DNA of 40,000 nt from an uncultured Solirubrobacterales bacterium (GCA_963703395.1 OY969817.1:1673702-1713701); one strand, 5' to 3'. Shown: positions 4,316 through 31,851, counted from the stretch's first letter. Translations and numbers: made by a program. The notes: a model not told the origin generated them from the sequence alone.

Positions 4316-4418
4316 CAACGGAGCTACGCCGGTGCGCGCGCCGAATGGTGTTCCCGGACCCCACCCCGTACACGGTACGCAAGCGACAACGGCCCCGCAC
4401 CGCCGAACACAAGGAGCG

Positions 4419-4937
4419 ATGCTTGTGTCATGGCCCACTCCCAAGCTGCGCTACGTGGATCCGTATAAGCGACGAGGTCGCCTGTATCTCGCGGTGTGTC
4501 GGTTCTCCGCCACCAAGGCAGGCGCTTTGCTCTCCGTCAACATCCTGTGGAAGCTTGACCCACATCTGCTGACGCTCACGAGGGGGCGGCTGGGCACCGG
4601 GGGGCCGCTTGCCACAGCGCTACTCGAGTCGCGAGGTGCGCGGACAGGTCAGCGGCGTCGGAATGCCACGCTCTACTTCCACGACGGTGATCGGGTGATC
4701 ATCATCGCGTCGAAGCGGGGGGCACCGAAGAACCCAGCCTGGTACTACAACCTCTGCAAGCATCCCGACGTCGTCTTCGGCCGCCTACCATTCCGCGCCG
4801 AAATCGTGGAGGACGAAGCCGAGCGGCAACGACTGTGGGATCTGGCTGACCGCGTCTTCCCTGAGTACGCCGGCTACCGTGAGCGGGCCGGGAAGGCAGG
4901 ACGAGTCATCCCGATCGTTCACCTGGTTCCTCGCTAG
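4419..4937 (+). CDS. deazaflavin (F420)-dependent nitroreductase family protein (Ddn-like)
   Basis: C-terminal half matches the family pattern (RTGQRRRNATLYFHDGDRVIIIASKRGAPKNPAWYYNL...ERQRLWDLADRVFPEYAGYRERAGKAGRVIPIVHLVPR). SD aaggag lies at 4411-4416. The start is either ATG 4419 or GTG 4425. Confidence 0.8.
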   Translation: MLVSWPTPKLRYVDPYKRRGRLYLAVCRFSATKAGALLSVNILWKLDPHLLTLTRGRLGTGGPLATALLESRGARTGQRRRNATLYFHDGDRVIIIASKRGAPKNPAWYYNLCKHPDVVFGRLPFRAEIVEDEAERQRLWDLADRVFPEYAGYRERAGKAGRVIPIVHLVPR

Positions 4938-4952
4938 CTCGATCGCCATTTC

Positions 4953-5009
4953 CAGGTACTTTCTCATCGGGCGACAGGATTCGAACCTGCGACCGCCCGG
5001 CCCCCAGCC
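4953..5009 (-). repeat. tRNA-Pro(GGG) 3'-half fragment plus 13-nt flank (att-like direct repeat, copy 1)
   Basis: The reverse complement reads GGCTGGGGGCCGGGCGGTCGCAGGTTCGAATCCTGTCGCCCGA, covering anticodon loop through T-arm to acceptor 3' strand. No matching 5' half or D-arm is present. It is near-identical to 7502-7558. Confidence 0.78.
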
Positions 5010-5125
5010 AGAGCGATCTGGCGTCTCTGAGTGCTCAGAGCCTGTGTTTACAGGGTTTGAGAGCGTCTGAGTGCTCCTGAGTTGCGCTCATATTGGACCC
5101 CGAACTGGACCCCGTAGTATAAGTC

Positions 5126-5153
5126 TTGACTTCTACAAGCTTTGGTTTATACT
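5126..5153 (+). promoter_or_regulatory. sigma-70-like promoter for the toxin-antitoxin operon
   Basis: TTGACT (5126-5131), a 16-nt spacer, then TATACT (5148-5153). The in-frame GTG at 5160 lies 6 nt after the -10, implying a leaderless or near-leaderless mRNA. Confidence 0.5.
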
Positions 5154-5159
5154 CGCAGG

Positions 5160-5516
5160 GTGTGGGAAGTCGAGTACACCGACACGTTTGGATCGTGGTG
5201 GGATGAGCTCACCGAAGACGAGCAAGAGCGTGTCACCGCCGCTGTCGAGCTGCTGGAGCAAGGCGGCCCTGCCCTCGGGCGCCCGCTGGTGGACACCCTC
5301 AAAGGCTCTCGCCATCCGAACATGAAGGAGCTGCGTCCCCACGGCGGGCACATACGCGTGCTGTTCGCCTTCGACCCCCGCCGCATGGCGATCCTGCTCT
5401 TGGGCGGCGACAAGAGCCAGCGCTGGAGCAGCTGGTACGCCGAGGCAATTCCAGCCGCCGATGCGCTCTACGACGAGCACCTACAAACACTTCGCGACGA
5501 AGGAGCAACCCCATGA
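5160..5516 (+). CDS. type II toxin, RelE/HigB (phage Gp49-like) family
   Basis: WEVEYTDTFGSWWDELTEDEQERVTAAVELLEQGGPALGRPLVDTLKGSRHPNMKELRP..IRVLFAFDPRRMAILLLGGDK is the pattern of HigB/Gp49-like toxins. A 4-nt ATGA overlap links it to the downstream HTH gene. The ORF track opens at TTG 5142, which sits inside the promoter, so GTG 5160 is preferred. Confidence 0.75.
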   Translation: MWEVEYTDTFGSWWDELTEDEQERVTAAVELLEQGGPALGRPLVDTLKGSRHPNMKELRPHGGHIRVLFAFDPRRMAILLLGGDKSQRWSSWYAEAIPAADALYDEHLQTLRDEGATP

Positions 5517-5941
5517 CCACGACTAAGACCACAAAGAGCCGCAAAGGGTTCGACGAGCTGCGCAAGCAGATCGATGCCGACCCAGCGCGTCGTGCGAACG
5601 TCGAGGAGCACAAGACGGCGATGCTCAGCGAGCTACGTCGCAAGCTCGACCTCACCCAGGCAATCGTCGCCGACCGACTCGACGTCACCCAGGAGAACAT
5701 CTCCCAGATCGAGCGCGGAGAGGCCGACGTTCGGCTATCCACGCTGAGCCGATACGTCGAGGCCCTCGGCGGACACCTGGAGGTTCGAGCCGCGTTCCCA
5801 GAGGAGACCGTCGCGCTCAGCGTAGGGACAGCCGCGACGATGCGTCGCCGGCGAACGCGAAGGGGATCCGCCTCCGCAGCCAAGACACCTCGCAACTCCA
5901 ACGCCCCGAGAGCAAAGAAAACACCAGCAAGCGACGCCTGA
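5513..5941 (+). CDS. XRE-family HTH antitoxin (HigA-like) with basic C-terminal tail
   Basis: HTH LTQAIVADRLDVTQENISQIERGEADVRLSTLSRYVEALGGHLEV. It is translationally coupled to the toxin. The tail is Arg/Lys-rich (RRRRTRRGSASAAKTPRNSNAPRAKKTP). Confidence 0.8.
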   Translation: MTTTKTTKSRKGFDELRKQIDADPARRANVEEHKTAMLSELRRKLDLTQAIVADRLDVTQENISQIERGEADVRLSTLSRYVEALGGHLEVRAAFPEETVALSVGTAATMRRRRTRRGSASAAKTPRNSNAPRAKKTPASDA

Positions 5942-5972
5942 CACGGATCGAGCAGGTCCGCGAGAAAAATCT

Positions 5973-7484
5973 GTAAGCGTTCAGTTGGTTTGGCCGCTTA
6001 TGTGAGGAGTGGTATTGGGTCGCTCCGCGCGTGGGCGTGGAGGGCGTCGGTGAGGTAGGCGAACAGGGAGCGTTTCTGTAGCCGGCAGGTTGTGTGCGCG
6101 GAGAGGAGCCGCGCGGTGCGCTGCTCGCCGTTCTCGGACTGGCTGCCGAGCGATAGCTTGCGGTAGATGACCGCGCTGCGGAGGGCGCGCTCGGCGTGGT
6201 TGTTGGTCGGCTCGATACCGTCGTGCTTGGCGAACGTCCATAGTGCTGGCCAGGCTTTGAGGAGGTTGCGCGCCATGCCGCGGCAGCGCTTGTTGCGCGC
6301 TCGTTTTGACGCGTAGCGCGTGATGATCGGCTTGAACTCGCGTTGAAGCCGGCGGACGGTCAGCTTCAACGCTCGACGCTCGCCGGTGTGTTGGAAGACC
6401 TCCCAAGCCCAGAAGACGCGCTCACAGAGGGCGAGCCCGTGCTCGCCGAACTCCTTCTCGGCTGCCAAGCCTTCGGCGTGCGCGGCGAAATCTCGCTTCA
6501 GATGCGCCCAGCAGAGCTGACGGCGCGCCAAGGGCAGGTGCGTATAGGCCCACCAGCGATCGGAGGTGATGATCGCCTTGGTGTCGGCCAACAGGCTCTT
6601 GGCGTGATCCTCGTGACGGTCTGGGGCGATGTGTAGGTAGGCATGTCGAGGATCGAAGATGCCCCACAGCGCGCGGCGCTGCCCGGCGGTTCGCCAGCCC
6701 GTCTCGTCCATGTTCACCGCGCCTGAGCCGCGAAGCTTGCAGAGCAGATCGGCGTGTGGGCCGCAGAGCGCTGCGCCCGCACGGTCGATGATCGCGTCCA
6801 CCGCGCCCGTGCTGATCCGTGAAGCGAACAGCTCTTCTGCGAACTCCACGACATCGCGGCGGGAGATTCGGTTGCGCACCGAGAGCGTGGTCACGGCGGC
6901 CTGCAAGCGCGGGCCGAACGCGCTCTGGGCAACCTCGGCTCGCAGCGCTGCCCGCGCTTGCGCTCCGCAGCCAGGACAGCGCACGCGTTGGCATTGATAC
7001 TCAGTCACCGTCACCGTGATCCTCGGCAGCTCCTCGACCTGCCAGCGCACCGGATCACCCGCCGCCACACGCTCATCCTCGGTGAAGGCGTGGCCGCAAC
7101 CACAGCGCGCCGGCCAATACTCGATCACCCGATCCACCGCACAGACCGGCAACAGCTCCCGGCCGTGGCCCTCGTGACCGGGCTGGGCGCCCTGCTTGCG
7201 ACCCGAAGGATCCTTGCCGCGTCTGCAAGGACCACCCGGCGGATCTGAGCTCGGCGGAGCCGAGAAATTACGCGAGCTGCGATTCAGCCTACGCTCAAGC
7301 TGGGCAATCCGCTCATCCTGGCGCGCCACGCGCGCCGTCAACGCCTGGATCTGGGCGTCCATCCGCAGAAGCACCTCGACGACCGCCTCACGACCAGCGT
7401 CATAAATCGCCTCCGCCTCAACCCGCTCCACACTCCCAGATTCGACACGCCCGAGCTATGTCCCCCAACCAACTGAACGCTTAC
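5973..7484 (-). mobile_element. IS66-family insertion sequence (single-ORF type), apparently intact
   Basis: Perfect 18-bp terminal inverted repeats: gtaagcgttcagttggtt at 5973-5990 and its reverse complement at 7467-7484. GTAAGCG is the canonical IS66-family terminus. aaaatc is present just outside both ends (5966-5971 and 7486-7491). Confidence 0.9.
5998..7431 (-). CDS. IS66 family transposase
   Basis: 477-aa ORF with an N-terminal leucine-zipper-like coiled coil (QALTARVARQDERIAQLERRL) and a Cys-rich zinc-ribbon region (CGCGH...CPGCG). The DDE core includes the VNMDETGW motif. Confidence 0.92.
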   Translation of the reverse strand: MERVEAEAIYDAGREAVVEVLLRMDAQIQALTARVARQDERIAQLERRLNRSSRNFSAPPSSDPPGGPCRRGKDPSGRKQGAQPGHEGHGRELLPVCAVDRVIEYWPARCGCGHAFTEDERVAAGDPVRWQVEELPRITVTVTEYQCQRVRCPGCGAQARAALRAEVAQSAFGPRLQAAVTTLSVRNRISRRDVVEFAEELFASRISTGAVDAIIDRAGAALCGPHADLLCKLRGSGAVNMDETGWRTAGQRRALWGIFDPRHAYLHIAPDRHEDHAKSLLADTKAIITSDRWWAYTHLPLARRQLCWAHLKRDFAAHAEGLAAEKEFGEHGLALCERVFWAWEVFQHTGERRALKLTVRRLQREFKPIITRYASKRARNKRCRGMARNLLKAWPALWTFAKHDGIEPTNNHAERALRSAVIYRKLSLGSQSENGEQRTARLLSAHTTCRLQKRSLFAYLTDALHAHARSDPIPLLT

Positions 7485-7501
7485 CAAAATCCACCAATTT
7501 G

Positions 7502-7558
7502 CAGGTACTTCTCATCGGGGAGACAGGATTCGAACCTGCGACCGCCCGGCCCCCAGCC
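7502..7558 (-). repeat. tRNA-Pro(GGG) 3'-half fragment plus 13-nt flank (att-like direct repeat, copy 2)
   Basis: Positions 7515-7558 match the 3' 44 nt of the intact tRNA-Pro (21872-21915) at 42/44. The two differences form a compensatory T-stem pair flip. No 5' half is present. It lies 58 bp from the stop of the integrase pseudogene. Confidence 0.78.
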
Positions 7559-7616
7559 CGCGCGATACCGTGCGGCTGGGTCCTAAACCCCCGTGATTAC
7601 TGGCCCCGAGTGTAGC

Positions 7617-8470
7617 TCAGTTGCTCTCGTTTTCGCTCAATTTGCTCCCCGGATTGTTCCCCGTCGCGTCGGTAGGGCCGCCCGGGGCCTCCACCTCGAC
7701 CGTCGTCTCGGGGCACTCGCCCGTCCCCGCTCGAGCGCGCGGATCGGCCGCTTGAAGATCGTCTTCAGGCTCGCCAGCCGGGTCGGGGGCGAAGGCGTCG
7801 TTGACGACCTGGACCTCGTGCTCTGAGGGAGCGTAGTGCGAGTAGATCTGGGTCGTCTCGCTGTCGGCGTGCCCCATGAACTCCTGGATCAGCCGTAGGG
7901 CTGCCGGGAGGCGGCGAGGCGGGTCGCGAAGGTATGGCGTAGGTCGTGGAACTTGATGACCTGCACGCTGGCGTCCCCGCAGGCGGTCTGGAAGCGCTTC
8001 GTGACCTTCGTTCGGTCGAGGGATTGCCGGTCTGCGGATGGCCGAACACTAGGTCGCGTTCGGCGCGATACGCGGTGCGCTTTGACCAGCGGTCGAGCTC
8101 GCCGGCCAGCCGGTCGGCCATCGGCACCGATCGCTCCGTGGAGAGGTCGGACTTCCCGTCGCCGGAATGCTCACCGCGGACATAGGTGTTGCGCTCGCGG
8201 ATTCGCTGCGCGACCCAATCGACATCTCGCCACCGCAGACCGAGCAGCTCGGATTGGCGCAGTCCGGTCATCGCCGCGGTGACGACACGACCCATAGGAC
8301 TGGCCCGAGGACGTCGGGCGGTGGCGGTGGTGCTGGCCCTCGGCGCCCGCGCCTGGTGGGCTTCGGCTTGCGGATGACGATCCCATCGGGGATTGCTCGC
8401 AGCACAGCTTCGAGCTCGGCGACCGTCAGGAACTGCAGGTCTGGGTCGGCGTCCCCAGCACGTTGAGGGC
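7617..8470 (-). pseudogene. tyrosine recombinase/integrase, frameshifted and 5'-truncated
   Basis: Catalytic-domain pieces lie in different frames. They are FLTVAELEAVLRAIPD, then TGLRQSELLGLRWRDVD...LVFGHPQTGNP, then KFHDLRHTFATRLAA, then LIQEFMGHADSETTQIYSHY (the R, HxxR and H..Y residues). At least three frameshifts are needed, and the N-terminal region is replaced by an IS110 fragment. Confidence 0.8.
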
Positions 8471-8577
8471 CCGGACGGGTCGCCTCACTCACCGGGTGGA
8501 CTTCGAGCGAGCATCGAAAGCGCTTCGGCGCGCGAACTGAACCCGTGCGGGTGCACCCACATGCCCACCTCACCGCC

Positions 8578-8856
8578 GGTGGTCGCCAACGCTCAGGATG
8601 TGCGGGCGATCTCTCACGCGCGGGTGAAGTCAGACCGCTTCGATGCGCGCACGCTCGCGGACCTGCTCGCGGCCGGGATGCTCGAACCGGTGTGGGTCCC
8701 CGACGCGGAGACCTCGGCGCTACGTCGCCGGGTAGCTCGGCGCGCGGCACTGGTGCGCCAGCGTACCCGCGCGAAGAACGAGATCCACGCGACGCTCTCA
8801 CGCTGCCTGCTCGGGCACCCACCCGTCTCGGACCTGTTCGGCAAGGAAGGGCGCCG
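8578..8856 (+). pseudogene. IS110-family transposase internal fragment (remnant)
   Basis: VVANAQDVRAISHARVKSDRFDARTLADLLAAGMLEPVWVPDAETSALRRRVARRAALVRQRTRAKNEIHATLSRCLLGHPPVSDLFGKEG matches the conserved middle of IS110 (DEDD) transposases. The N-terminal catalytic start and the C-terminal half are absent. Confidence 0.7.
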
Positions 8857-8954
8857 CGATAGATCGGCAAGACATGGGTCTCGCGCTCTAGCGGGACGAC
8901 TCAATGGCAGAGCCCCGGCAGACGCAACACATCACAACCCAGGCACTATCTTAT

Positions 8955-10461
8955 TAGTACTTTGTTAGGCTGATTGTGGCTGTTTCACTCATCTTGTGGC
9001 GGGTGGCGCAAGGGTAGGTTGGCGAGGTCTATCGGCTGGCGGCAGGTGTGGCAGTGTCCGGCCCAGCAGTCGAAGATGGGCTCGAGCAGGCGGACTGCTT
9101 GGGGGAGTGTGAGGTCCGCCGCCGGGCTTTTGGGTTCTGCCGCTCCAGGGTGAGGAAGGCGTGCGCGGCGGTGACGAGCGCGGTGTGGTGGTACCAGCCG
9201 AGCCAGGAGCGTCCCTCGTAGTGGTCGAGGCCGAGCTCGCCCTTGAGTTGCTTGTAGTCGAGCTCGATCATCCAGCGCAGCCTGGCTAGGCGCGCGAGGC
9301 GCTCGGGCTTGGTGTCGGCGGGGAGGTTTGAGATCCAGTAGTCGCCGGGAGCGTCGCGGCCCGCGGGCCACTCGATGATCAGCCACTCCTCGCGGGGTGC
9401 CTCGTTGTCGCGGGTGACCGGGTGCGCGGCGGTGACGCGCTTGAAGGCGAAGCGCGAGCGGACCCGCTGCTTGCCTTTGCCGCGGAAAGTGACGATGCGG
9501 AAGTCCTCGTCTGCGAGCGAGCGCGCGTACTGCTCGACCGAGACCGGCTTGCCCTCCGCGCGCAGCTTGCGTGACGCTGGCCCTCTGGCGCCCCGCCGGC
9601 GCTCGGGCACGGCAAAGACCGTACCCGCCTGGAAGATGGTCATATCGGGGTCGATCGAAAGCATGTAGTCGAACCCGCCGCCGTTCAGCGCGGTGCGCAG
9701 CCCAGTGTTCTCGCCGTAGGCCGCGTCGCCGAGCACCGGCGCGCGGTCGATCGCAAACGTGGCGGCGCGCTCGATCAACGCCTGCCCGAGCTGCGGCTTG
9801 GTCTGAAAGACGACGTGCTCGGGGACCTTGGCCTTGCGGCGGCGTTCGGGGTCATCACACCAATCCTCGGGCATATACAGATCCCAGCCCAACGGCAGCG
9901 TCGCGTGCTCGGAGACGGCGTGCAGCGAAACCCCGATCTGGCAGTTGCCGATCTTGCCGAGCGTGCCCGAGTACTGGCGCTTGACCCCCGGGGAGCGCTT
10001 GCCGTCCTTGGGGAACCCCGTGTCGTCCAGCACCCACGCCTCAGCGTCAACGACCGGCGCGACGCACTCGACGACCGCCTGCATCACACGCTCCGGGTCC
10101 CACGGGCTGTCGGCCAGAAACTGCTGCAGGCTCTGATAGTCGGCCTCGCCCGCCAGGCGCTCGACCAGCGGTTCAAGCGATTTACGCGGGCCGGCATGCA
10201 ACAGGCCACGCACGTAGCGCTCAGCGTTCTCGCGCTGGACCGGGTGATCCATCGACGCCAGCGCCACCCCGCCCACGAACTCCTCCAAGCGCTCCTTCAC
10301 CGCCCCCGCCAAGAAGGACACCGGGACGCCTTCCTGCGACACCGGCACAGCCTCCTCCATCATCACAGCAGACATATCCGCCCTCCCGCATCGAGTATCA
10401 ACGATGCAGGAAGTGTTCGCCACGCAACGAACAATACCTACAACAGCCTAACAAAGTACTA
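8955..10461 (-). mobile_element. IS701-family (IS4-like DDE) insertion sequence, apparently intact
   Basis: Terminal inverted repeats: tagtactttgttaggctg at 8955-8972 and its reverse complement at 10444-10461 (18/18), with further partial matches inward. It is flanked by a 4-bp direct repeat TTAT (8951-8954 and 10462-10465). Confidence 0.85.
9029..10423 (-). CDS. IS701 family transposase (DDE)
   Basis: 464-aa ORF with the typical IS701 N-terminus (ERYVRGLLHAGPRKSLEPLVERL...YQSLQQFLADSPWDPERV). It also has WVLDDTGFPKDGKRSPGVKRQYSGTLGKIGNCQIGVSL and a C-terminal YKQLKGELGLDHYEGRSWLGWYHH. Confidence 0.88.
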   Translation of the reverse strand: MANTSCIVDTRCGRADMSAVMMEEAVPVSQEGVPVSFLAGAVKERLEEFVGGVALASMDHPVQRENAERYVRGLLHAGPRKSLEPLVERLAGEADYQSLQQFLADSPWDPERVMQAVVECVAPVVDAEAWVLDDTGFPKDGKRSPGVKRQYSGTLGKIGNCQIGVSLHAVSEHATLPLGWDLYMPEDWCDDPERRRKAKVPEHVVFQTKPQLGQALIERAATFAIDRAPVLGDAAYGENTGLRTALNGGGFDYMLSIDPDMTIFQAGTVFAVPERRRGARGPASRKLRAEGKPVSVEQYARSLADEDFRIVTFRGKGKQRVRSRFAFKRVTAAHPVTRDNEAPREEWLIIEWPAGRDAPGDYWISNLPADTKPERLARLARLRWMIELDYKQLKGELGLDHYEGRSWLGWYHHTALVTAAHAFLTLERQNPKARRRTSHSPKQSACSSPSSTAGPDTATPAASR

Positions 10462-13400
10462 TTATGGCACCGCCCACGGCGCGCAGGCACCGTATTCGTT
10501 CTTCCCCCACGTGCTGAACTTGTACTGAGAACCCCAGTACGGGACATAGCTCTCACAGCCAACCGCAAAGTTAGCATTGTAGTTGGGAAGCGGTGCCCTC
10601 GGATTCGAGAGCGTCCCCAATCCGGTGGGAGCAAAGCTTTGCCAGCTACCTCCGTATTGGACTCTCGGAGCGCGGAACGTCAGAGGTTTCTCATACGTCC
10701 CTGGAGCGGTGTCATCTTCGCGGTGAGTCTCTGCCCCGGCGAGATCGGCATCTCCGAACGATGTGTTCGCCGGCAGATAGTAGATCCACAAACATTGGCC
10801 GCCCATTCGTGCTTCCACTTCGAGGCGACGTTTACGTCGAGTGTACCCCTGATATTGTTCGTATTCTGCCTTCTTGCCTTGTTTAACCACCCATGGACAT
10901 GCTTTGTCATAGCCCTTTGGTTGAATCCCCTTGGATTCGACCGCAAATTTGACTGGCGAGGAAGGGACTTGGCCGAGGGCAAAGATCTCGATAGAGCCCG
11001 GTTCGGGAGGGCTGTTTTGGAACTGAACTTGCTGGTATTCGATTAGGCCATCGTTTTCGCTTTTTGGCGCATTAAGATTGGTTCCGCGGACCTCAACGAA
11101 GGGGTTGTCCGTGCCGTCAGAGTTGTAGAAGACGCCCGCTTGCACGAAGACATACGGCGATTCATTCTGAAGCATGACCCACGATGAGGTGGGATAGCCC
11201 GGACTACGACAGAGAGACGCTGGACCCAGGAATGCGCGCACACCAGTAAACGTGTTTGGATGTTGTTCAGGGAATTCATCGATGACGGCGTCAAAACCCC
11301 CGCCGCCGTTAGAAGATGGGCAGCTGTGGTTCTCGTAGTTGACGTTGGGATCGGCGGTCTGTGAGATTTCCTGGATGAGGCCAGCGGTACCGGCGGAGGT
11401 TTCGCCGACGGCCCAACACGACGCGTGCGCGTGACAGGAGATCGCGAAAAGTTGACTGGCCGCAGGCACAGCTTCGTGACTTCCAGCGGTGACCGCAAAT
11501 ACACCTTGATTGAAGCTCGCGTTCTCCCCGACGGCCAGACAGGTCGCTTCGGCAACGCACGATATGCCTTTGAGGTAGCCCGAGACAGGCGGGATTATAT
11601 ATTCAGGTTTGGGGGGCGTCGTACGGAAGACCGTGGTTGGGGGTATCCCGTCAGTCACGGGCACGATGATCGTAGAGCCTGGAGTTTTTGTAGTGCCTGT
11701 CGCATCACACGAAACGCTGTTGAAGCAATCCACCGCCGACAGGCTCTCGGTTTCGCCGATGGTGTAAACAGTGTGGGACAGGGTCGCCCGCTGAATATCC
11801 ACAACTACACCTTCGGGTACGTGATTGTTGCCAACAGCCACACACGTGTTGCGGCAGGTCACGCCATGCAGATCCGATACTTGCTTGTGGCCGTTGCCAC
11901 TTAGATCGTGGGCGCCTCCTACTACCCCGTTGGTGATCGGCACCGCGATTCCCTGGGCCGCACCTCCACCCGCACCTTCGCCGGTGCCAACCGCCAGACA
12001 CGCCCCTGCGTTGTGACACGCAACTCCCTCGAGCGCGATCACGCTCGGAACAACCCGTGCTTTGCCTGGGGATCCGTTCATAATCGGCACCACGATCCCT
12101 TTAGCGGTGGAAGTGTTGCCGACCGCGAAGCACGAGGCGGACGTTTCGCAGGCGACCGCATATAGGTGAGTGCTGCCGGGCACGCTCATTGCTTTGCTGG
12201 GAAGCCCGTTCGATACCCCCACGACGACGCCTTCACCCGTCGGGGAGTTTCCGACGGCCACGCATGAGCGTTCCCCGGTACACGCGATCCCGTCGAGGAG
12301 CTTCACATCACTGGACACGTGGACCCCGGTCAGTCCCGCTTGGACGACGGGATGATCCAGAACGTGTTTCCCATTGATGATACTGCTGACCGTGTAGTAC
12401 GCCTGGCTCTCGGCGGCGGCTCCCGAGATGTATGCATCGGTCGAGCCGGCGGGCAGCCTCGTGATCGTCTGCGTGGAGCTTGGGCTGGCGAGGACCGCTT
12501 CGGGACTGACCGGAAATGGTGTGTCGAGCGTGGGCGTGGAGAAGACCTCGTAGCCTTCCGCGTTTGGGTCCTGTTCCCAGTGGATGTGGACGCTAGTTGA
12601 AGCCTGGTTGGTCGCGGTGAGCGCGTACAGTGGCGGTGGTGACATTTGTTCGATGCCTGCGCCCGGGGTGATTGCCTCACCTGCAAACGTCGCACTCGAA
12701 AGCGCTGGTTTGAACGTTGATTCGCTTGCGCCGTCAGGCACGAGGACGTAGGTGCCGCCGAACGTGTCGCCGGGCGCGAGTTCGGCGAACGTAACGGTGA
12801 ACTTCTGGTCGGGCTGGAAAATAAAGTGTTCGTGAGTGTTTTCGTCGATCGTGACGGCGACGTTGTAGAGGGGGACGTTGGCTTCGTTTCTCACGCCGAT
12901 GCGAACGTTGTACGGCACGCCCGCGTGCAGGGCGCCTTCGTCGGCGTAGACCTTGAGCGACAGGGCTTCCACGCCCCAGACGCGCAGGGGCTGCGCGAGT
13001 TCGGCGTGCAGGTCCACCGGGGCTTCGATAATGTTGAGCTTGCCATGGTAGTCGGCTGAGAGGTAGTAGTTGCCGGGGGTGTCGCCGCGGATGACCCAGT
13101 TCACGGTCTTGCTGCCGAGGCCCGGCACGTCTTCGACCGTCTGCGTTTCCTGCTGCGGCGTCGAGGTCGGTGCGAGGCTGATGCCTGGTGGCAGGTGGAG
13201 ACTCGCGCTGCCCGCGGTGAGCTTGAACGGTTCCGGGGAGAGGTTCTGGATCACCATGCTCACTTCGAAGAACTGCTTGAGTACGGTCGCCTTGCCGCGG
13301 AGGATCAGCCACTGGATCAACGGGTGACCGCCGATGAAGGCCGGCACGACGACGATGCCGCCGCCCTCGCACTCGTTGGGCGAGCATGTCCAACCGCCTC

Positions 13401-16400: not shown

Positions 16401-18867
16401 GGCCGGACGGGTTGACCTCGCCTGCGACCATCGCCGTCGTAGCGCCGATGGCGAACGCGTTTGACGTGGATGCGGACGGGAGGCCGGAGAAGAAGAATTC
16501 AGCGGAGCCATGTCCCGTGCCTGAGCCATTGACGGCGATCAGTTCGGCGCAGTATTCGTTGCCTGCGCTGAGTCCAGTAAGTTCGACTGAGACCTGGTGG
16601 GACGTGGCATCCGTGAAGCCCAGCGTCACCGGTGTGGTCGAGTGCACCGGTGAGCCCGCGAGGCCACCGCTCGTGCACCATTCAGAGCTCGCCAGATCAT
16701 AGGCGACGTGATATTCGGTCGTCTGGCCGGACGGGTTGACCTCGCCTGCGACCGTCGCCGTCGTCGCTCCGGTCGACTGAGGGCCAAACGCGAAGGCCGA
16801 CGGTGCGCCCGCGGTGAACGACTGCGGGAATCCTTCTGAAGTCCCCGAACCATTGACCGCGATGAGCTCGACGCAGTATTCGCTACCGCCTGTCAAGGCG
16901 GTCAGTTCTACCGAGACTTGGTGGAACGTCGCATCCGTGAAGCCCAGCGTCACCGGCGACGTCGAGTGCGCCGGTGAGCCCGCGAGGCCACCGCTCGTGC
17001 ACCATTCAGAGCTCGCCAGATCATAGGCGACGTGATACTGGGTCGTCTGGCCGGAGGAATTGACCTCGCCTCCGACCGTCGCCGTCGTCGCACCGGTTGA
17101 CTGCGGGCCAAACGCGAAGGCTGACGGTGCGCCCGCGGTGAAGGACTGCTGGAACCCCGCCGATGTGCCAGAGGCGTTGACGGCGATGAGCTCCTCGCAG
17201 TATTCGCTGCCAGCCGTCAGGCCGGTCAGTTCCACCAACACCTGGTGGAACGTCGCGTCCGTGAAGCCCAGCGTCACCGGTGCAGTTGAATGCGCCGGCG
17301 AGCTCGCAAGCCCTCGGCTCGTGCACCATTCAGAGCTCGCCCGGTCATATGCGACGTGATATTGGGTCGATTGGCCGGAGGGGTTGACCTCGCCTCCGAC
17401 CGTCGCCGTCGTCGTTCCGGTCGACTGTGGGCCAAAAGCGAAGGCCGAGGGCGCGCCAGCGGTGAACGTCTGTGTGAACCCAGACGAGGTCCCCGAGCCG
17501 TTGGCCGCGATGAGCTCCTCGCAGTATTCGCTGCCGCCAGTCAGGCCGCTGAGACCAACCGAGACGGGGTGAAACTTGGCCGCCGTGGAGCCGAGGGTCA
17601 GGAGGGACGTGGCGTGCGTCGGTGAGCCTTTGGACCCATAGCTCGTGCACCATTCAGAGCTCGCCAGGTCATAGGCGACGTGGTATTGGGTGGATTGGCC
17701 GGCGGGATTGACTTCGCCGTTGACCAGCTCGGTGGTCGAGGCGATCGCGCTGGAGCCACGCGCTTCGACCGAGGGCGCTCCGGCGGTGAACGTCTGTGTG
17801 AACCCAGACGAGGTCCCCGAGCCGTTGGCCGCGATGAGCTCCTCGCAGTATTCGCTGCCGCCAGTCAGGCCGCTGAGACCAACCGAGACGGGGTGAAACT
17901 TGGCCGCTGTGGAGCCGAGGGTCAGGAGGGACGTGGCGTGCGTCGGTGACCCTTTGGAGCCATAGCTGGTGCACCATTCCGAACTCGCCAGGTCATAGGC
18001 GACGTGATACTGGGTCGATTGGCCGGCGGGATTGACTTCGCCGCTGACAAGCTCGGTGGTCGACGCGATCGCGCGGGAGCCGAAGGCGTTGACAGACGGG
18101 GTTCCCGCAGTGAACGTCTGCGTGAATCCAGATGAGGTCCCGGAGCCGTTGGCCGCGATGAGCCCCTCGCAGTATTCGCTGCCAGCCGCCAGGCCGCTGA
18201 GACCAACCGAGACGCGGCGAAACTTCGGGGCCGTGGAGCCAAGGGTCACCAGGGACGTTGAGTGGCCCGGTGAGCCTTTGGACCCATGGCTCGCGCACCA
18301 TTCAGAGCTCGCCAGGTCATAGGCGACGTGGTATTGGGTGGATTGGCCGGCGGGATTGACTTCGCCTTCGACGAGCTCGTTTGTCGAGGTGGTCGCGCGG
18401 GGGCCAAAGGTCCTGACCGACGGCGTCCCCGCGGTGAAGGACTGCTGGAATCCCGCCGACGTGCCAGAGCCGTTGGCCGCGATCAGCTCCTCGCAGTACG
18501 TGCTGCCGGCCGTCAGCCCGCTCACCCCGACCGACACCTGCCGGTATGTGGCGGCCGTGGAGCCGAGGGTCACCGGTGACGTCGAGTGCGCCGGTGAGCC
18601 TTTGGAGCCATGGCTGGTGCACCATTCCGAGCTCGCAAGGTCATAGGCAACGTGGTATTGGGTGGATTCGCCGCCGGGGTTGACCGAGCCTTCCACTATC
18701 GCCGTGGTAGCGCTGGTCGAGAAGGCGTTGAAGGTGGAGGCCGACGGGATCGAGGCTTGCGCTAAGGCCGACAGCGCAAGAGTCCAGCACACGATCGCGA
18801 CAAGAACGGCAAGACCGGCCCTGAAGCGCCACGTGCGGCTGGCCCACGAGGCAAGCACAATGGCCAT
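10462..18867 (-). CDS. giant secreted multi-repeat surface protein (adhesin-like), ~2800 aa
   Basis: Start chosen at ATG 18865-18867, giving the signal peptide MAIVLASWASRTWRFRAGLAVLVAIVCWTLALSALAQA. The N-terminal half, read from the translation, is 9 x 108-aa FN3-like repeats (VNPxGQxTxYHVAYD..WC..YC) followed by IPT/TIG (VTKVSPAGGTTAGGTLVTIIG). Next come 5 x ~97-aa two-Cys Ig-like repeats (LQWLRC..G..C..I.GAT..TY....DVGH.L.VEE) and a PKD domain (WEFGDGS...HTY..AGSYTATLTV). The C-terminal half has a CarboxypepD_reg-like domain, CARDB-like sandwiches, an FN3, 7 Cys-pair repeats and a ~300-aa orphan C-terminal domain. Confidence 0.85.
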   Translation of the reverse strand: MAIVLASWASRTWRFRAGLAVLVAIVCWTLALSALAQASIPSASTFNAFSTSATTAIVEGSVNPGGESTQYHVAYDLASSEWCTSHGSKGSPAHSTSPVTLGSTAATYRQVSVGVSGLTAGSTYCEELIAANGSGTSAGFQQSFTAGTPSVRTFGPRATTSTNELVEGEVNPAGQSTQYHVAYDLASSEWCASHGSKGSPGHSTSLVTLGSTAPKFRRVSVGLSGLAAGSEYCEGLIAANGSGTSSGFTQTFTAGTPSVNAFGSRAIASTTELVSGEVNPAGQSTQYHVAYDLASSEWCTSYGSKGSPTHATSLLTLGSTAAKFHPVSVGLSGLTGGSEYCEELIAANGSGTSSGFTQTFTAGAPSVEARGSSAIASTTELVNGEVNPAGQSTQYHVAYDLASSEWCTSYGSKGSPTHATSLLTLGSTAAKFHPVSVGLSGLTGGSEYCEELIAANGSGTSSGFTQTFTAGAPSAFAFGPQSTGTTTATVGGEVNPSGQSTQYHVAYDRASSEWCTSRGLASSPAHSTAPVTLGFTDATFHQVLVELTGLTAGSEYCEELIAVNASGTSAGFQQSFTAGAPSAFAFGPQSTGATTATVGGEVNSSGQTTQYHVAYDLASSEWCTSGGLAGSPAHSTSPVTLGFTDATFHQVSVELTALTGGSEYCVELIAVNGSGTSEGFPQSFTAGAPSAFAFGPQSTGATTATVAGEVNPSGQTTEYHVAYDLASSEWCTSGGLAGSPVHSTTPVTLGFTDATSHQVSVELTGLSAGNEYCAELIAVNGSGTGHGSAEFFFSGLPSASTSNAFAIGATTAMVAGEVNPSGQTTEYHVAYDLASSEWCTSGGLAGSPAHSTTPVTLGFTDATSHQVSVELTGLSAGNEYCAELIAVNGSGIAHGSQVTFFAGFPAASTSNAFATGATTAMVEGQVNPSGQATQYHVAYDLASSEWCASEGLAGSPAHLTTPATLGFTDAAFHQVSVELPGLSAGNEYCVELVAVNGSGTAHSSQFRFTAAPPMPAVTKVSPAGGTTAGGTLVTIIGTALEGATAVHFSAASATIKTNTATEITAESPAHAGGQVDVTVTTPGGTSATSEADHYTYVGVPEEITPPKISGTAQQGKILTEEHGTWTNEPITSYKLQWLRCNSSGTECNEKITGATEPTYVPGEADVGHKLKVEESAINKTGESKLATSGATAEVLPHEPVDETAPTINGSPQQGHTLTEEHGTWKYTPTSYKLQWLRCNSLGEGCLPIEGATSQTYTPTKADVGEKLKVEETAVNAGGAGAAALSAATAAVTPHVPEETTPPKISGVAKEGQTLTVEDGGWTNEPQQFEHRWLRCNESGGECSAISMATGETYVLVTSDVGHTIRVEEVAINKGGSSKPAESAATSVVLPLPPVNIAPPTVTGTAQEGKTLTSQAGTWEHTPTKTKLQWVQCDSVGMSCSAISGAQGETYAPTLQDVGHTIRVEETAENAGGASLPAPSAATAAVTIAVPVNLTAPKIAGSAEKGQTLVESHGAWTNEPTAYTYRWVRCNSAGEECALITGALNETYQPTMADVGHTLRIEETAVNAGGESPAAPSVPTAVVVPIPLHAAAGENLTATVGAPVVFDGSGSSPASEIEHYNWEFGDGSTSTEKSPVHTYAAAGSYTATLTVSRGTETAHQSISVTVSAPAAHNVKIKTVDHEGHPIAGATVLYVGSGGTRVQATTGTEGEAALEGLPDGTDTVYAYESGYRPLVGNVVVTGGAGTTTLTLVSGEVATSTLKSHELNLKEIEAAGINVNDPANQHVYEFEVRLAFIEGTPPATLHGYINNSGEFVGPSGGAVGGGGGWTCSPNECEGGGIVVVPAFIGGHPLIQWLILRGKATVLKQFFEVSMVIQNLSPEPFKLTAGSASLHLPPGISLAPTSTPQQETQTVEDVPGLGSKTVNWVIRGDTPGNYYLSADYHGKLNIIEAPVDLHAELAQPLRVWGVEALSLKVYADEGALHAGVPYNVRIGVRNEANVPLYNVAVTIDENTHEHFIFQPDQKFTVTFAELAPGDTFGGTYVLVPDGASESTFKPALSSATFAGEAITPGAGIEQMSPPPLYALTATNQASTSVHIHWEQDPNAEGYEVFSTPTLDTPFPVSPEAVLASPSSTQTITRLPAGSTDAYISGAAAESQAYYTVSSIINGKHVLDHPVVQAGLTGVHVSSDVKLLDGIACTGERSCVAVGNSPTGEGVVVGVSNGLPSKAMSVPGSTHLYAVACETSASCFAVGNTSTAKGIVVPIMNGSPGKARVVPSVIALEGVACHNAGACLAVGTGEGAGGGAAQGIAVPITNGVVGGAHDLSGNGHKQVSDLHGVTCRNTCVAVGNNHVPEGVVVDIQRATLSHTVYTIGETESLSAVDCFNSVSCDATGTTKTPGSTIIVPVTDGIPPTTVFRTTPPKPEYIIPPVSGYLKGISCVAEATCLAVGENASFNQGVFAVTAGSHEAVPAASQLFAISCHAHASCWAVGETSAGTAGLIQEISQTADPNVNYENHSCPSSNGGGGFDAVIDEFPEQHPNTFTGVRAFLGPASLCRSPGYPTSSWVMLQNESPYVFVQAGVFYNSDGTDNPFVEVRGTNLNAPKSENDGLIEYQQVQFQNSPPEPGSIEIFALGQVPSSPVKFAVESKGIQPKGYDKACPWVVKQGKKAEYEQYQGYTRRKRRLEVEARMGGQCLWIYYLPANTSFGDADLAGAETHREDDTAPGTYEKPLTFRAPRVQYGGSWQSFAPTGLGTLSNPRAPLPNYNANFAVGCESYVPYWGSQYKFSTWGKNEYGACAPWAVP
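11365..12310 (-). repeat. seven divergent ~40-55-aa Cys-pair repeats (propeller-blade-like) inside the giant gene
   Basis: The units start LDGIAC, LYAVAC, LEGVAC, LHGVTC, LSAVDC, LKGISC and LFAISC. Each has the form L..(I/V).C.....C.A(V)G......G(I/V)VV(P/G)(I/V).NG. Confidence 0.6.
14110..15565 (-). repeat. five tandem ~290-bp repeats (93-100 aa two-Cys Ig-like units) inside the giant gene
   Basis: Five units each contain G.TL....G.W...P..Y..(Q/R)W(L/V)(R/Q)C...G..C..I.GA...TY.P...DVGH.(L/I)(K/R)(V/I)EE.A.N..G. They are divergent at the DNA level. Confidence 0.8.
15840..18750 (-). repeat. nine in-frame tandem repeats of 324 bp (108 aa) inside the giant gene
   Basis: A 324-bp period is visible in the DNA; for example, 17461-17583 is repeated exactly at 17785-17907. 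Antisense shadow ORFs also start 324 bp apart (16088/16412, 17060/17384). The boundaries given are approximate. Confidence 0.9.
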
Positions 18868-19117
18868 CGCGGCACAACGAACCGCCGCTCGTCGCGCCTG
18901 TGGCCCTTCGCGGATGTTCGCTGCTGCGGCCGTAGCCCCCCGCTCTCGCGTCCTGCGGCTCCATCCTCCGGGACGCTTCTCCCCGGTGCCGCTATTCGGG
19001 CGCGACCCTATCAGGTCAGACAAACTCAACGACGACGCCCGGAGACTGGCAGTGGATCACACCCGACGTGCCAGGGTTGTGGGCGTGCACAACGGTCCGC
19101 GGTAGACGAACAGCTCA

Positions 19118-19525
19118 ATGCGGGAGCCCTCTTCGCCGAGGGACTGCGTCGCTTACACGCAGATGTTCGCATCCCGAGGGGCACGCTTGAGAGCGCTTCT
19201 ACGTCATCGAGGGACCGTGTGGGAAAGTTCGCTGCAGCGTGCGATGCTGACGCACGGCTTTGCGAAGGCCGAAGTGCGGAAGGCATTCGCCGCTCGCCCG
19301 ACGAGCATCCATGGCTTCGATCTTGTGCGGTCACTAGCGATACCGGCCCCACAGCCGGCATTCACACGCTACTACGACATGCTGGAGATCAACGATGTCA
19401 TGACGCTCGTCAATGAGCTCGCAAGGCTCCGCTGCGGGGCGCCATGGGTCGCTGGAGGCACACGAGCGCTTCGCGGCCCCGCTCGATCATCCTGGCTCCG
19501 CTGGTGGTTCTCGTCGGCCTGCTGA
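19118..19525 (+). CDS. hypothetical protein (weak call)
   Basis: 135-aa ORF divergent from the giant gene. Third-position GC is visibly lower than in neighbouring genes and no motif was recognised. It may be non-coding. Confidence 0.25.
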   Translation: MREPSSPRDCVAYTQMFASRGARLRALLRHRGTVWESSLQRAMLTHGFAKAEVRKAFAARPTSIHGFDLVRSLAIPAPQPAFTRYYDMLEINDVMTLVNELARLRCGAPWVAGGTRALRGPARSSWLRWWFSSAC

Positions 19526-19806
19526 TAACGGTTGCCTCGGCCGGTGCCTTTAGTGTTGACTCTAATTAGCTGACGGGCTCGCGGTCATCGCCGCTACCGC
19601 TGGATCACCAGCCGATTCGCCCCACCCGGTGCGCCATCGCCGCCGGGAAGCGGTTCCCCCGCCCGCTCGCGGACACGCCGCAAGCAGTTCGGGTATCACT
19701 TGTTGTTCCCGGTAGCAGCGCCCGCAACCCTAAAACCCGCAAACAGCGCCAACTCTCTGGCGGTCATGCCGTGCGCAGGCGCTCGACTGTCCGCCACGGG
19801 CGACGC

Positions 19807-20270
19807 TCACCGATACGCTTGCTCGCCGAGCAATGCGAGCGCCAGCCAGCCGCGGGGTCGCACTTGCGCAATGGACGACGAGCAGGGCGCCCTCGTCTCG
19901 CACGCCCGACACCTGCTTCGCGGTGGTCGCGGTACTCGACCATGCCGGCCGTGGCGCTGCCGGTCGACCCCGGCGATATCCGTGTCGACGCTGTGCGCGA
20001 TCGCTATCGCCTCTCCGCGCTCGGTCCGGACCACGCTGTCGGCTTGCTGGCCGAGCGCGCCGCGCAGCTGCGCGAGTGCGTTACGGAGGCTGGCGCGCGC
20101 GCTGTCCTCGCGCACATCAGGCCACAGCCGGCCAGCTCGCTGCGGCCGTGCGCTCGGCGCTCGAGCGCGAGCATCGCTAGGAGCAACCTCGCCTTGCGGC
20201 TGGCCGGCAGTTCGACGTCCCGCCCGTCGATTTCGAGCCGAAGCTCGCCCAGCAGGTTGAACCGCACCAT
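19807..20270 (-). pseudogene. SARP/BTAD-type winged-helix transcriptional regulator, frameshifted and truncated
   Basis: MVRFNLLGELRLEIDGRDVELPASRKARLLLAMLALERRAHGRSELAG continues in another frame as LWPDVREDSARASLRNALAQLRGALG...VDTDIAGVDR. This is the OmpR/SARP-type N-terminal DNA-binding domain. No BTAD, ATPase or TPR part follows. Confidence 0.6.
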
Positions 20271-20409
20271 GGCAGCGAATCTACTCGGCCGAGCGCCGCG
20301 ATCGAGCGCACGGGTCTTTGCGCGCCCCCATGTTTGCTCATGCGTCGCCGTTCCATGCGAGCCAGCGCGAGCATGATCTTCATGCCGAACTCGCCGAACG
20401 GCGTCGGCC

Positions 20410-21594
20410 CTACTGCAGCGACTCGAGTGGGTGGTGACGTCTGATGTAGTCGCCGAAGAGGGGTGCCGTGAAGTTGACGTAGCCGCGTCGGGGGCTGTAG
20501 ATGAGACCCTTGAGGTCGATCAGGTTCTGGCGCACGAGCGCGGTGCGGCGCTGGTCGGCGCCGAGCAGCGCTGACACCTTCGCGGTCTGCTGCGACCCAT
20601 CGCCGAGCTCGGCAATCGCGGCCAGGTAGCGGCGCTCAGCCGCGGTCGCGCGGTTGAAACGTGCTCGGTGAAAGCCGCTGTCGAGCTGCTCTTGAGCGAT
20701 CGTGTCGGCAGCTTTGGCATCGTGGTCGGTGATCGGCGAGCTGGCCGCGACCAGCCAGGCGTAGCGCCCGTAAGTCTGCAGAAAGAACGGGTAGCGGTCA
20801 GCTCGAGCGAGGATGAAGTCGAGTGCGGCCTGCTCGTACTCGACGCCCTCGCGCTCAGCGGGGAGCGTGAGCGCAGTTCGGGCGGCGTCCTCGGTGAGCC
20901 GACCGATCTCGACGTACTGGAAGAGGCGCTCCGCATAGGAGCTTGCCTCAACGAGCCTGCCTGGGAGCTGTGGCAGTCCAGCGCAGACGAGCGCCACGGG
21001 AAGCTGACGCTGAGCGATGCGATGGAAGGCCGCGAGCAGCGCCTGCAGGTCCTCCTTCTCGGCGAACTGCATCTCGTCGAAGAAGAATGCTATGCCGCCC
21101 TCAGCCTCGCGGGCTGTCTCGCCAAGCTCGACCAGGACATCCTGGAGATCGACATCGAGCTGCCCGCTGTCACCGCGTCCAGGAGTCGGGGCGACATCGA
21201 CCTTGAACGTGATCCCAGCGGGCATAGCTGTCACCGAGAAGCTGCTGATGACCGACAGCGACCTGCGCAGCCGCTCCCGGACACTCTCCCGCCGTGCAAG
21301 CGACTGCGCGGCCTGCGCTGCCACCTGAGCAAGCGCTGGACGCAGCGGTCCACGGCCGCGCAGCTCGATGTAGCCCGAGCCCCATCCGGCCTCTTCGGCC
21401 TCCGCAGCGAAGCGGTTCAGTAGGACCGTCTTGCCGACGCCGCGAAGCCCCCACAGCGCAAGGTTCTGCTCAGGACGCCCGGCAGCAAGACGCTTGAGCA
21501 GCACACCGAAACTCGTCTGCTCTCCATCGCGACCTGCAAGCTCCGGTGGTGGCGTACCGGCGCCTGGTGCGTAGGGATTGAGGACCTCGTCCAC
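20410..21594 (-). CDS. AAA+ ATPase (archaeal-ATPase/COG1672-like) with C-terminal winged-helix
   Basis: N-terminal NPYAPGAGTPPPELAGRDGE, Walker A GLRGVGKTVLLNRF and Walker B IAFFFDEMQ. The C-terminal winged-helix-like region reads AERRYLAAIAELGDGSQQTAKVSALLG...LIDLKGLIYSPRRGYVNFTAPLFGDYIRR. GTG start at 21592-21594, with TATACT 6 nt upstream. Confidence 0.85.
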   Translation of the reverse strand: MDEVLNPYAPGAGTPPPELAGRDGEQTSFGVLLKRLAAGRPEQNLALWGLRGVGKTVLLNRFAAEAEEAGWGSGYIELRGRGPLRPALAQVAAQAAQSLARRESVRERLRRSLSVISSFSVTAMPAGITFKVDVAPTPGRGDSGQLDVDLQDVLVELGETAREAEGGIAFFFDEMQFAEKEDLQALLAAFHRIAQRQLPVALVCAGLPQLPGRLVEASSYAERLFQYVEIGRLTEDAARTALTLPAEREGVEYEQAALDFILARADRYPFFLQTYGRYAWLVAASSPITDHDAKAADTIAQEQLDSGFHRARFNRATAAERRYLAAIAELGDGSQQTAKVSALLGADQRRTALVRQNLIDLKGLIYSPRRGYVNFTAPLFGDYIRRHHPLESLQ

Positions 21595-21871
21595 ACCACG
21601 AGTATATAGCTTTATATGGCTGTATTTGCTCAGGGCATAAAGTCAAATAATCCCGTGCCGATGCGGCCTCCGAACTGCTGGCCGGAGCCGTTCGCTCCGG
21701 AGGGCCAGAGATTTGAGAAAGGCCATCGCAACCCCTGGCTTGGTCGCCGGCCAGCGTGGCAGGCAATCGCCATGCTTTGCAAGTTCTCCGAGAAATTGTT
21801 CCCCGTGGGGGGCCTTTCTTTCTCGAGGAGCTAACCGCAGTTTTTGGCTCTATTACTTGCTTTTCCTGTAG

Positions 21872-21945
21872 TCGGGGAGACTGGATTCGAACCAGCGACC
21901 GCCCGGCCCCCAGCCGGGTGCGCTACCAGACTGCGCCACTCCCCG
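21872..21945 (-). tRNA. tRNA-Pro (anticodon GGG)
   Basis: Hand-folded cloverleaf: CGGGGAG TG GCGC AGTCTGGTA GCGC A CCCGG CTGGGGG CCGGG CGGTC GCTGG TTCGAAT CCAGT CTCCCCG A. It is 74 nt and CCA is not encoded. Confidence 0.9.
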
Positions 21946-21982
21946 TGGCTCAGGTCCAGAGCCTAGCGCGGGGCGGGCTCCA

Positions 21983-30524: not shown

Positions 30525-30533
30525 GAGTGGCAT

Positions 30534-31848: not shown

Positions 31849-31851
31849 GCT

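Follow-up and report, generated by a model that had tools for sequence, protein, structure and literature searches.

The pSAM2-type actinomycete integrative and conjugative elements (AICEs) have their attB site in a tRNA-Pro gene, and the identity between their attachment (att) sites extends from the anticodon loop as far as the gene's 3′ end. In 2002, Williams reportedly set apart, in Nucleic Acids Res, an anticodon-loop sublocation class of tRNA att sites. In Dehalococcoides, the genomic islands at ssrA are said to stand in tandem, separated by repeats of the 3′ end of that gene. Throughout this lineage, genomic islands are described as integrating at a single gene, the tmRNA gene ssrA (PMC3146451). 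In a three-step model of accretion, a first element integrates and then decays until only a remnant is left, which has no integrase but retains its att sites; a second element subsequently integrates at an att site of that locus (PMC5704250). Here, I analysed a 40,000-nt stretch of DNA (hereafter, the window) from an uncultured Solirubrobacterales bacterium (GCA_963703395.1 OY969817.1:1673702-1713701), in which the region 4944-21945 is very probably a fossil array of two integrative elements accreted site-specifically at a tRNA-Pro(GGG) gene. The actinobacterial order Solirubrobacterales is abundant in soil, few of its members have been cultured, and I know of no integrative element described from it. 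The 14.3-kb element between the intact tRNA-Pro and an orphan 3′ part of the gene (F2) is called element B (7559-21870), while the 2.5-kb remnant between F2 and a further orphan (F1) is called element A (5010-7514). The array is evidenced by the repeats of the tRNA gene, by the arm motifs and their pairing, by the homology and decay of an integrase, by a hotspot found across species, and by a horizontally shared segment.

ARAGORN called three tRNA genes in the window, namely tRNA-Pro(GGG) at 21871-21945 (minus strand), tRNA-Gly(TCC) at 21983-22053 (minus strand), and tRNA-Ser(GCT) at 34719-34805 (plus strand). Rfam, which was also used for the tRNA calls, reported the Pro and Gly genes as full-length tRNAs, the former with 62.1 bits over the full model length, and called nothing at F1 or F2. 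F1 (4966-5009) and F2 (7515-7558), both on the minus strand, form a direct repeat family of three with the intact gene (21872-21915); with F2 as the reference, the repeat finder gave 91% for F1 and 95% (42/44) for the intact gene. A 28-nt core pattern with up to three mismatches hits exactly three sites in the window, all on the minus strand, and none in 100 shuffles. F2 differs from the intact gene solely in a compensatory flip of a T-stem pair (A51:T63 in F2, T51:A63 in the intact gene). The 57-nt segments containing F1 and F2 are two 1-nt indels and one substitution apart, and the acceptor strand of F1 is changed by one substitution and one deleted base. The 5′ half of the tRNA is absent from both orphans, and element DNA lies upstream of each of them in the tRNA orientation. 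The identity block begins at the 5′ edge of the anticodon loop (between GGC and TGGGGG) and extends through the tRNA 3′ end. Direct repeats of the tRNA 3′ part bound the elements, with a full tRNA at one end only. In the proposed array, the intact gene would be the attL of element B, F2 would be the B/A junction (the attR of B and the attL side of A), and the outermost F1 would be the attR of element A. Most of these features had been described in an initial annotation made from the sequence alone, and base-by-base reading agrees with it on the differences between the 57-nt segments, on the 42/44 match with its T-stem flip, on the missing 5′ halves, and on one full tRNA-Pro with three direct copies. 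The repeat length of 57 nt given there is right but too short, because F1 and F2 remain similar for another ~20-30 nt beyond the 3′ end of the tRNA (to 4944 and 7485) and, on the element side, for ~105-115 nt (5010-5125 and 7559-7680).

Is this tRNA gene also occupied in related bacteria? One genome per species was scanned with the adjacent SDR protein, which gave 80 loci, nearly all labelled Solirubrobacterales or Solirubrobacteraceae, and a scan of JGI metagenomes with the same protein gave 80 further loci (~160 loci in total, up to 21 kb each). The closest SDR relatives have 81% amino acid identity in the species genomes and 77% in the JGI metagenomes, and none is at strain level. The order of the SDR gene, tRNA-Gly, and tRNA-Pro(GGG) is kept in 78 of the 80 species loci, and the genes on the SDR side, encoding a PQQ-like propeller, a 643-aa protein, and an LPG-synthase-like membrane protein, are present in 69-76 of them. 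When the open reading frames (ORFs) downstream of tRNA-Pro were clustered, the largest family covered at most nine loci. Since the upstream genes are conserved while the downstream families are confined to nine loci or fewer, the 3′ side of the tRNA is variable order-wide. On this comparative evidence, tRNA-Pro(GGG) is an order-wide integration hotspot. A tblastx comparison of the downstream segments with the window gave GC-rich noise only and was set aside.

An intact tRNA-Pro with a direct orphan 3′ part 1.7-8 kb downstream was found in seven loci (L001, L007, L008, L009, L026, L068, and L136), and further orphan copies, more divergent or inverted, were found in L038 and L029. Throughout the ~160 loci, orphan copies occur downstream of tRNA-Pro only and are direct in all loci but L029, whose entire segment is inverted; none was found in the 10 kb upstream of tRNA-Pro. 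If the fragments belonged to a dispersed tRNA-derived repeat family, of the miniature inverted-repeat transposable element or short interspersed nuclear element kind, they would not be att scars at all. This idea is scarcely credible in view of the one-sided placement of the orphans, the structured arm with integrase-type repeats that precedes every orphan, and the presence of exactly three copies in the window.

Alignment of the junctions revealed a common layout of the element ends. In the P arm, a tandem repeat pair lies ~85-105 nt upstream of the orphan core, and in the P′ arm, one or two repeat copies lie 62-78 nt past the intact tRNA. All arms are collinear, in the order of repeat pair, TGAGCG, ACTCAG-type boxes, short hairpin, and core. 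In loci where both ends are present, each element has its own 9-bp repeat in both the P and P′ arms: GGGGAACAA in L007, GGGGTCCAA in L008 and L009, and TGTTCTAT in L001. Exact matches to the motif GGGGWMCAA are found at the P′ offset in 17 of the 74 loci from species genomes and in 12 of the 43 from metagenomes, while the background of the motif, 0.018 per kb per strand, predicts ~0.1 loci by chance. The 40-kb window has only three exact matches, each of which lies on the tRNA strand and coincides with a predicted arm position (21796-21804, 7654-7662, and 5093-5101), and one-mismatch arm partners are found 12 nt off at 7642-7650 and 5105-5113. An arm of the TGTTCTAT type was searched for in the window and was not found. 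The arm repeats are probably bound by the integrase.

The arm repeats allow the ends of the elements to be paired. The P′ arm of B (21780-21870, minus strand) has the arm-type site GGGGAACAA at 21796-21804, 67 nt past the tRNA end, and belongs to a flank class also found in L065, L005, and L002. The P arm of B (7559-7680, minus strand) has the tandem sites GGGGAACAA (7654-7662) and GGGGAGCAA (7642-7650), and the P arm of A (5010-5125, minus strand) has the tandem sites GGGGTCCAA (5093-5101) and GGGGTCCAG (5105-5113). In other words, GGGGAACAA adjoins both the intact tRNA and F2, and F1 has the GGGGTCCA type, twice. Since both carry the GGGGAACAA arm type, the intact tRNA and F2 are taken as the two ends of B. 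F1 with its GGGGTCCA type marks the closing end of A.

The pairing also bears on whether F1 and F2 could have arisen by local duplication of one attR region, either mediated by an insertion sequence (IS) or through unequal recombination. Their cores are near-identical, their similarity extends into the flanks on both sides, and an IS66 lies between them, as a duplication would have it. However, across the 115 nt of the P arm, F1 shares 81% and 74% identity with the arms of two other species, L009 and L008, respectively, but only 63% with F2. Since the F1 arm is closer to L009 and L008 than to F2, a recent local duplication is ruled out. Moreover, the arm motifs of the two differ (GGGGTCCA for F1 versus GGGGAACA/GGGGAGCA for F2), and the short common flank also follows the intact tRNA-Pro in many species. 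Local duplication in any form is thus very improbable, and two separate elements remain the preferred source of F1 and F2.

Arrays were also observed in relatives. In L007, an orphan fragment is followed by a TGTTCTAT-type P′ arm (16504-16590), and in L009, an orphan fragment is followed by a second GGGGTCCAA-type P′ arm (16078-16165). Since these orphans carry further P′ arms, arrays of at least two elements, sometimes with mixed arm types, recur at tRNA-Pro.

The window segment 20408-21949, which spans the AAA_16 gene and P′ arm of B together with the tRNA, is 97% identical to L065, a distant genome whose core flanks have only 67-76% identity, and the match ends exactly at the AAA_16 stop codon. 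The T51:A63 allele is found in 5 of 78 related loci and is present in both the window and L065. Since the two share this allele plus the 97% block, it is likely that the allele travels with the element, and the 3′ part of the intact tRNA (21872-21915) may well be derived from the attP of the element. The initial annotation had ascribed the flip to an attP allele, and the linkage of the rare allele to the L065-shared segment points the same way. Because T51:A63 moves with the element, the crossover is placed 5′ of position 51, presumably between the start of identity in the anticodon loop and T-stem position 51, in agreement with the anticodon-loop class of tRNA att sites. The array has a GC content of 0.56-0.69, as against 0.72-0.76 for the conserved right flank, in keeping with the integrated origin first proposed.

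The following scheme is proposed. In the attP, a P arm and a P′ arm would enclose a copy of the tRNA that starts at the anticodon loop, reaches the 3′ end, and is extended by ~20-30 nt of the downstream hairpin. A lambda-type tyrosine integrase would recombine this attP with the tRNA gene, presumably by binding core sites around the anticodon loop and the 9-bp arm repeats in both arms. In each integration, a working tRNA would be rebuilt from the element copy (attL), and the older 3′ part would be displaced downstream as an orphan (attR). Read in the tRNA orientation, the array would start with attL and the GGGGAACAA P′ arm, followed by B (the AAA_16 gene, an Ig-repeat gene, ISs, and the integrase remnant), the P arm of B (GGGGAACAA/GGGGAGCAA), F2, the remnant of A, the P arm of A (GGGGTCCA twice), F1, and a truncated flank. 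I infer the order of the two integrations within this scheme. The 20-30 nt flank of F1 and F2 could have been plain host sequence, but this view was dropped; since arm motifs come after the flank in many species, it would be at least partly attP-borne.

The locus resembles the anticodon-loop class in that the identity starts at the 5′ edge of the anticodon loop and continues to the end of the tRNA, the tRNA is regenerated, and an orphan marks the far end. It differs in that the identity block of the window extends ~20-30 nt beyond the tRNA into the downstream hairpin. The T51:A63 linkage narrows the crossover in the window no further than to the stretch between the anticodon loop and T-stem position 51.

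The tyrosine integrase gene of B (7758-8498, minus strand) was revealed to be a pseudogene by six-frame reading, tblastn, and a partial match to Pfam Phage_integrase. In tblastn with the L007 and L029 integrases as queries, the remnant corresponds to residues ~166-418 of the intact homologues, and the N-terminal ~165 residues are gone. A fragment of an IS110-family transposase gene (8579-8855, plus strand) occupies the expected place of the 5′ part; it has 74-81% tblastx identity to an ORF of L072 that matches Pfam DEDD_Tnp_IS110 and Transposase_20. The catalytic tyrosine-recombinase motifs (R..H-x-x-R..Y) are present in the remnant, but the gene is inactivated: box I TGLR (TGLRQSELLGLRW), HDLRHTF, and LGH...Y lie in three different frames, and there are three frameshifts. 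The intact integrases of L007 and L029 (413 and 433 aa) are 70-80% identical to the remnant, and that of L007 matches Pfam Phage_integrase with E = 2.4e-35. Both lie toward the attR end, that of the orphan fragment, ~1 kb (L007) and ~4 kb (L029) from the P arm. The L007 integrase gene is on the tRNA strand, like that of the window. In L029, the entire segment has the opposite orientation with respect to the SDR gene, and an HTH_17 excisionase-like gene lies upstream of the integrase gene. These homologous integrases beside orphan tRNA-Pro halves, together with the arm pairing and the 97% block of L065, favour the serial accretion of two elements that had been suggested at the outset. With an integrase truncated at its N-terminus and broken by three frameshifts, B is evidently immobile without outside help, and no functional integrase was found anywhere in the array (4944-21945).

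Element A retains a toxin-antitoxin pair as its only cargo. The toxin gene of this pair is Gp49/RelE-ParE-like (5142-5516, plus strand; Pfam Gp49, E = 1e-20), and the antitoxin gene is of the HTH type (5513-5941, plus strand; Pfam HTH_3, E = 2e-10); the matches of the pair to the NCBIfam toxin-antitoxin families are under the family cutoffs. A spacer of ~30 nt separates the pair from an IS66-family element (5973-7484, minus strand) with a transposase gene at 5998-7431 (NCBIfam transpos_IS66, 256 bits versus a cutoff of 180; also Pfam). The terminal repeats of the IS66 are GTAAGCGTTCAGTTGG, and their GTAAGCG start is typical of IS66 ends. Its flanks, AAAAATCT and CAAAATCC, look like a decayed 8-bp target duplication. 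The IS66 cuts the downstream flank of F2 (7485-7514, minus strand), a hairpin-type CCTGCAAA...TTTT sequence of ~30 nt that matches the flanks found after tRNA-Pro in many species, e.g., L009 with 89% over 76 nt. This flank may be read as a remnant of the P′ arm of A. In 5010-7514, both a P′ arm repeat and an integrase are absent as judged by sequence reading and by Pfam and NCBIfam. Thus integrase-less, and with a P′ arm truncated and split by the IS66, A also appears immobile without outside help.

A second IS66 insertion was found at the same site. The IS66 of the window is inserted 30 nt past the tRNA end of F2, directly after CCTGCAAA(N8)TTTT, and L046 has an 81% identical copy (11187-12680) at the same position after its intact tRNA-Pro in the opposite orientation. 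The L046 copy lacks part of its far end, which is fused to a reading frame resembling an integrase. Since two independent insertions occurred at one nucleotide position, the IS66 may have a target-site preference for the tRNA-downstream hairpin.

The arrangement recalls ICESt1 and the cis-mobilizable elements (CIMEs) of Streptococcus thermophilus, in which elements and CIMEs accrete in tandem at one att site (PMC5704250). Element A lies between the att-type sites F2 and F1 and has neither integrase nor transfer genes, as in the definition of a CIME in the same report (PMC5704250). Cis mobilisation aside, A would fit the definition of a CIME left by decay, and also the accretion model outlined above. 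The array differs from the S. thermophilus system in host phylum and integrase lineage; moreover, its second element is also dead, and conjugation genes are present in neither element of the window.

Several observations weigh against two accreted elements as the explanation of 4944-21945. Neither an empty site nor a partly filled array was seen in the ~160 loci, none of which is strain-level (SDR identity of 81% or less). Ddn-like genes with 87-93% amino acid identity have other neighbours elsewhere, and the left flank is not demonstrably ancestral. The P′ arm of B holds one perfect arm site only. L065 has just 1.5 kb of B, the GC content varies inside B, and B may be a mosaic or have arisen through more than one event.

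This last point leads to the possibility that more than two events built the array, either because B is a composite whose internal scars were deleted or because A and B arrived as one block via the outer att sites. I regard this as possible though not probable. It would suit the L065 match, which is limited to 20408-21949 and ends at the AAA_16 stop codon, the range of GC inside B (0.56-0.69), and the IS701, IS110 fragment, and pseudogenes held by B. Relatives do have mixed-arm arrays, e.g., the attR of L007 with the TGTTCTAT-type P′ arm behind it, and the transfer of tandems of CIMEs and integrative and conjugative elements as a unit has been documented (PMC5704250). On the other hand, only three core copies exist in all, even at 3 mismatches, and both ends of B have the same arm motif, as predicted for a single element. 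Accretion of two elements therefore remains the preferred reading.

The left edge of the array deserves a separate description. The Ddn-like F420H2-dependent reductase gene is an ORF at 4332-4937 (plus strand) with a probable start at 4419, as identified by ORF reading. Next to it, the truncated tRNA-downstream flank of F1 (4944-4965, minus strand) is a ~20-nt match to the usual tRNA-Pro flank. The flank match stops at 4943/4944, and the homology of the Ddn-like locus begins exactly there. In L081, L082, and L083, 86-92% nucleotide identity to window ~4354-4942 was found as a single-gene block with unrelated neighbours on both sides; the homologues are 87-93% identical in amino acids, and the homology always ends 4-5 nt past the stop codon. 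No tRNA-Pro or fragment adjoins the Ddn-like gene in these three contigs. The empty site in which the Ddn-like gene abuts tRNA-Pro, anticipated by the initial annotation, was found neither in them nor in the related loci. None of the proteins encoded in the left flank was found by tblastn downstream of tRNA-Pro in the 80 species loci, and the genes at 1800-4937 have GC and third-position GC below those of the conserved right flank. The outer edge of the array looks like a later rearrangement junction. Of the core genes formerly placed on both sides of the array, those on the right are indeed conserved; those on the left are at most putative core genes, given the different neighbours of the Ddn-like gene in the three contigs. 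L083 has an integrase and toxin-antitoxin island directly upstream of its Ddn-like gene.

Does the array belong to the pSAM2-type AICEs? The tRNA-Pro target and the att span are shared with the pSAM2 arrangement outlined above. However, Pfam and NCBIfam scans of the ORFs of 5010-21870 revealed no Rep, FtsK-like Tra, Kor, or Pif; they identified only toxin-antitoxin genes, transposases, the integrase remnant, the Ig-repeat protein, and the AAA_16 ATPase. A coupling-protein-like gene was found only in the unrelated element of L001. The L007 integrase, an intact homologue of that of B, has <30% identity to everything in the plasmid and phage collections, and its best matches are not Streptomyces elements. 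In IMG/VR, the AAA_16 protein gave nothing and the integrase gave a single 39% match, with no sign of a phage. Membership in the pSAM2-type AICEs was rejected, since the array lacks the genes for replication, transfer, and regulation that define the group and the integrase lineage has <30% identity to plasmid and phage records. The initial assignment to the pSAM2 type thus survives as an analogy of att-site position and not as membership. The locus is also similar to Dehalococcoides ssrA in that one small-RNA gene serves as a lineage-wide island site; it differs in its target gene and in its organism.

The process itself is of a standard type, in which a tyrosine integrase directs elements into a tRNA gene and the elements then accrete in tandem and decay. 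The phenomenon is known, and the integrase lineage is uncharacterised. It is biologically ordinary, and the window holds dead remnants only. Nevertheless, the array offers a worked example of accretion at a tRNA in Solirubrobacterales with its att anatomy, namely the core, the arm repeats, and their spacing. The arm-repeat pairing rule is a practical means of delimiting elements in arrays without integrases, and the intact L007/L029-type integrases with the attP layout are a possible starting point for integration vectors in Solirubrobacterales.

Small complete elements of 1.7-5.3 kb were found in L008 (11596-14942), L009 (11168-16046), L026 (11130-16433), and L068 (11026-12726). These four, among six related loci examined with both ends, have arm repeats at both ends and no integrase. 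PIN/VapC-like or AbiEii-like toxin genes lie beside the P arm in L008, L009, and L026, and a 175-aa ORF without a Pfam match lies there in L068. These integrase-less loci with arm motifs at both ends point to a more speculative view, in which tRNA-Pro(GGG) is an order-wide dock for integrase-less cassettes of 1.7-5 kb, mostly toxin-antitoxin, that have complete P and P′ arms and are moved in trans. I consider this unlikely. The same must be said, with equal doubt, of the companion idea that the N-terminal domains of the integrases read a code of arm repeats (GGGGAACAA, GGGGTCCAA, and TGTTCTAT). By eye, an unquantified comparison, the N-terminal segment is the most different between the L007 and L029 integrases, and their arm motifs differ. 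If the cassette-dock view were true, the arrays would be a standing record of an integron-like exchange system, beyond random decay.

The remaining cargo of B was also analysed. The AAA_16 ATPase gene (20410-21594, minus strand; Pfam AAA_16, E = 4e-16) lies at the P′ end. Homologues are found immediately after tRNA-Pro in L065 (98% amino acid identity) and L013 (44%), and the gene may be a regular P′-end component of one sub-lineage. Neither PADLOC nor PDB returned a match for the AAA_16 protein. A gene encoding a 2855-aa Ig-like/fn3/PKD/TIG repeat protein (10462-19029, minus strand) was recognised by ORF and domain reading, and it contains nine tandem 324-bp (108-aa) repeats at 15869-18760 with 69-89% identity. 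Next to it lies an IS701-family element (8952-10464, minus strand) with a transposase gene at 9029-10423 (NCBIfam transpos_IS701, 396 bits versus a cutoff of 150) and 21-nt inverted repeats at 8952-8972 and 10444-10464 that are 95% complementary. Since the stop codon of the Ig-repeat gene falls within the inverted repeat at 10444-10464, the C-terminus of the protein was probably cut off by the IS701 insertion. The gene order of Gp49/HTH, IS66, and integrase in the initial annotation is upheld, but the integrase had been taken for a gene where there is a truncated, frameshifted pseudogene, and the IS701 and the IS110 fragment had been missed. Short ORFs lie between the Ig-repeat gene and the AAA_16 gene. 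There, a frame at ~19990-20270 (minus strand) that opens with MVRFNLLGELRLEIDG is similar to the N-terminal part of a SARP/OmpR-type winged-helix regulator once a 1-nt frameshift is repaired. Its match to Trans_reg_C is weak (E = 1.6e-4) and under the cutoff, and the frame is probably a pseudogene.

On the other side of the tRNA-Pro gene, tRNA-Gly(TCC) is inverted with respect to the SDR gene and tRNA-Pro in ~30 of the 80 species (L001-L080, at about 10.9-11.7 kb). In the inverted loci, the spacer is usually ~100-600 nt, as compared with 10-40 nt, which indicates a recurrent inversion/insertion polymorphism between the two tRNAs. Farther to the right, synteny with relatives stops at ~28913. 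The following part (28914-40000) has a GC content of 0.60-0.68, HNH and GH25-like genes, and tRNA-Ser(GCT), and a second tyrosine recombinase gene lies at 28966-29946 (minus strand), beyond the end of synteny. It is probably another island or prophage, and thus the conserved core block of the window would be only ~21.9-28.9 kb. Just beyond the end of the LPG-synthase-like gene, at 28540-28591, there is a tandem 26-nt direct repeat with 92% identity.

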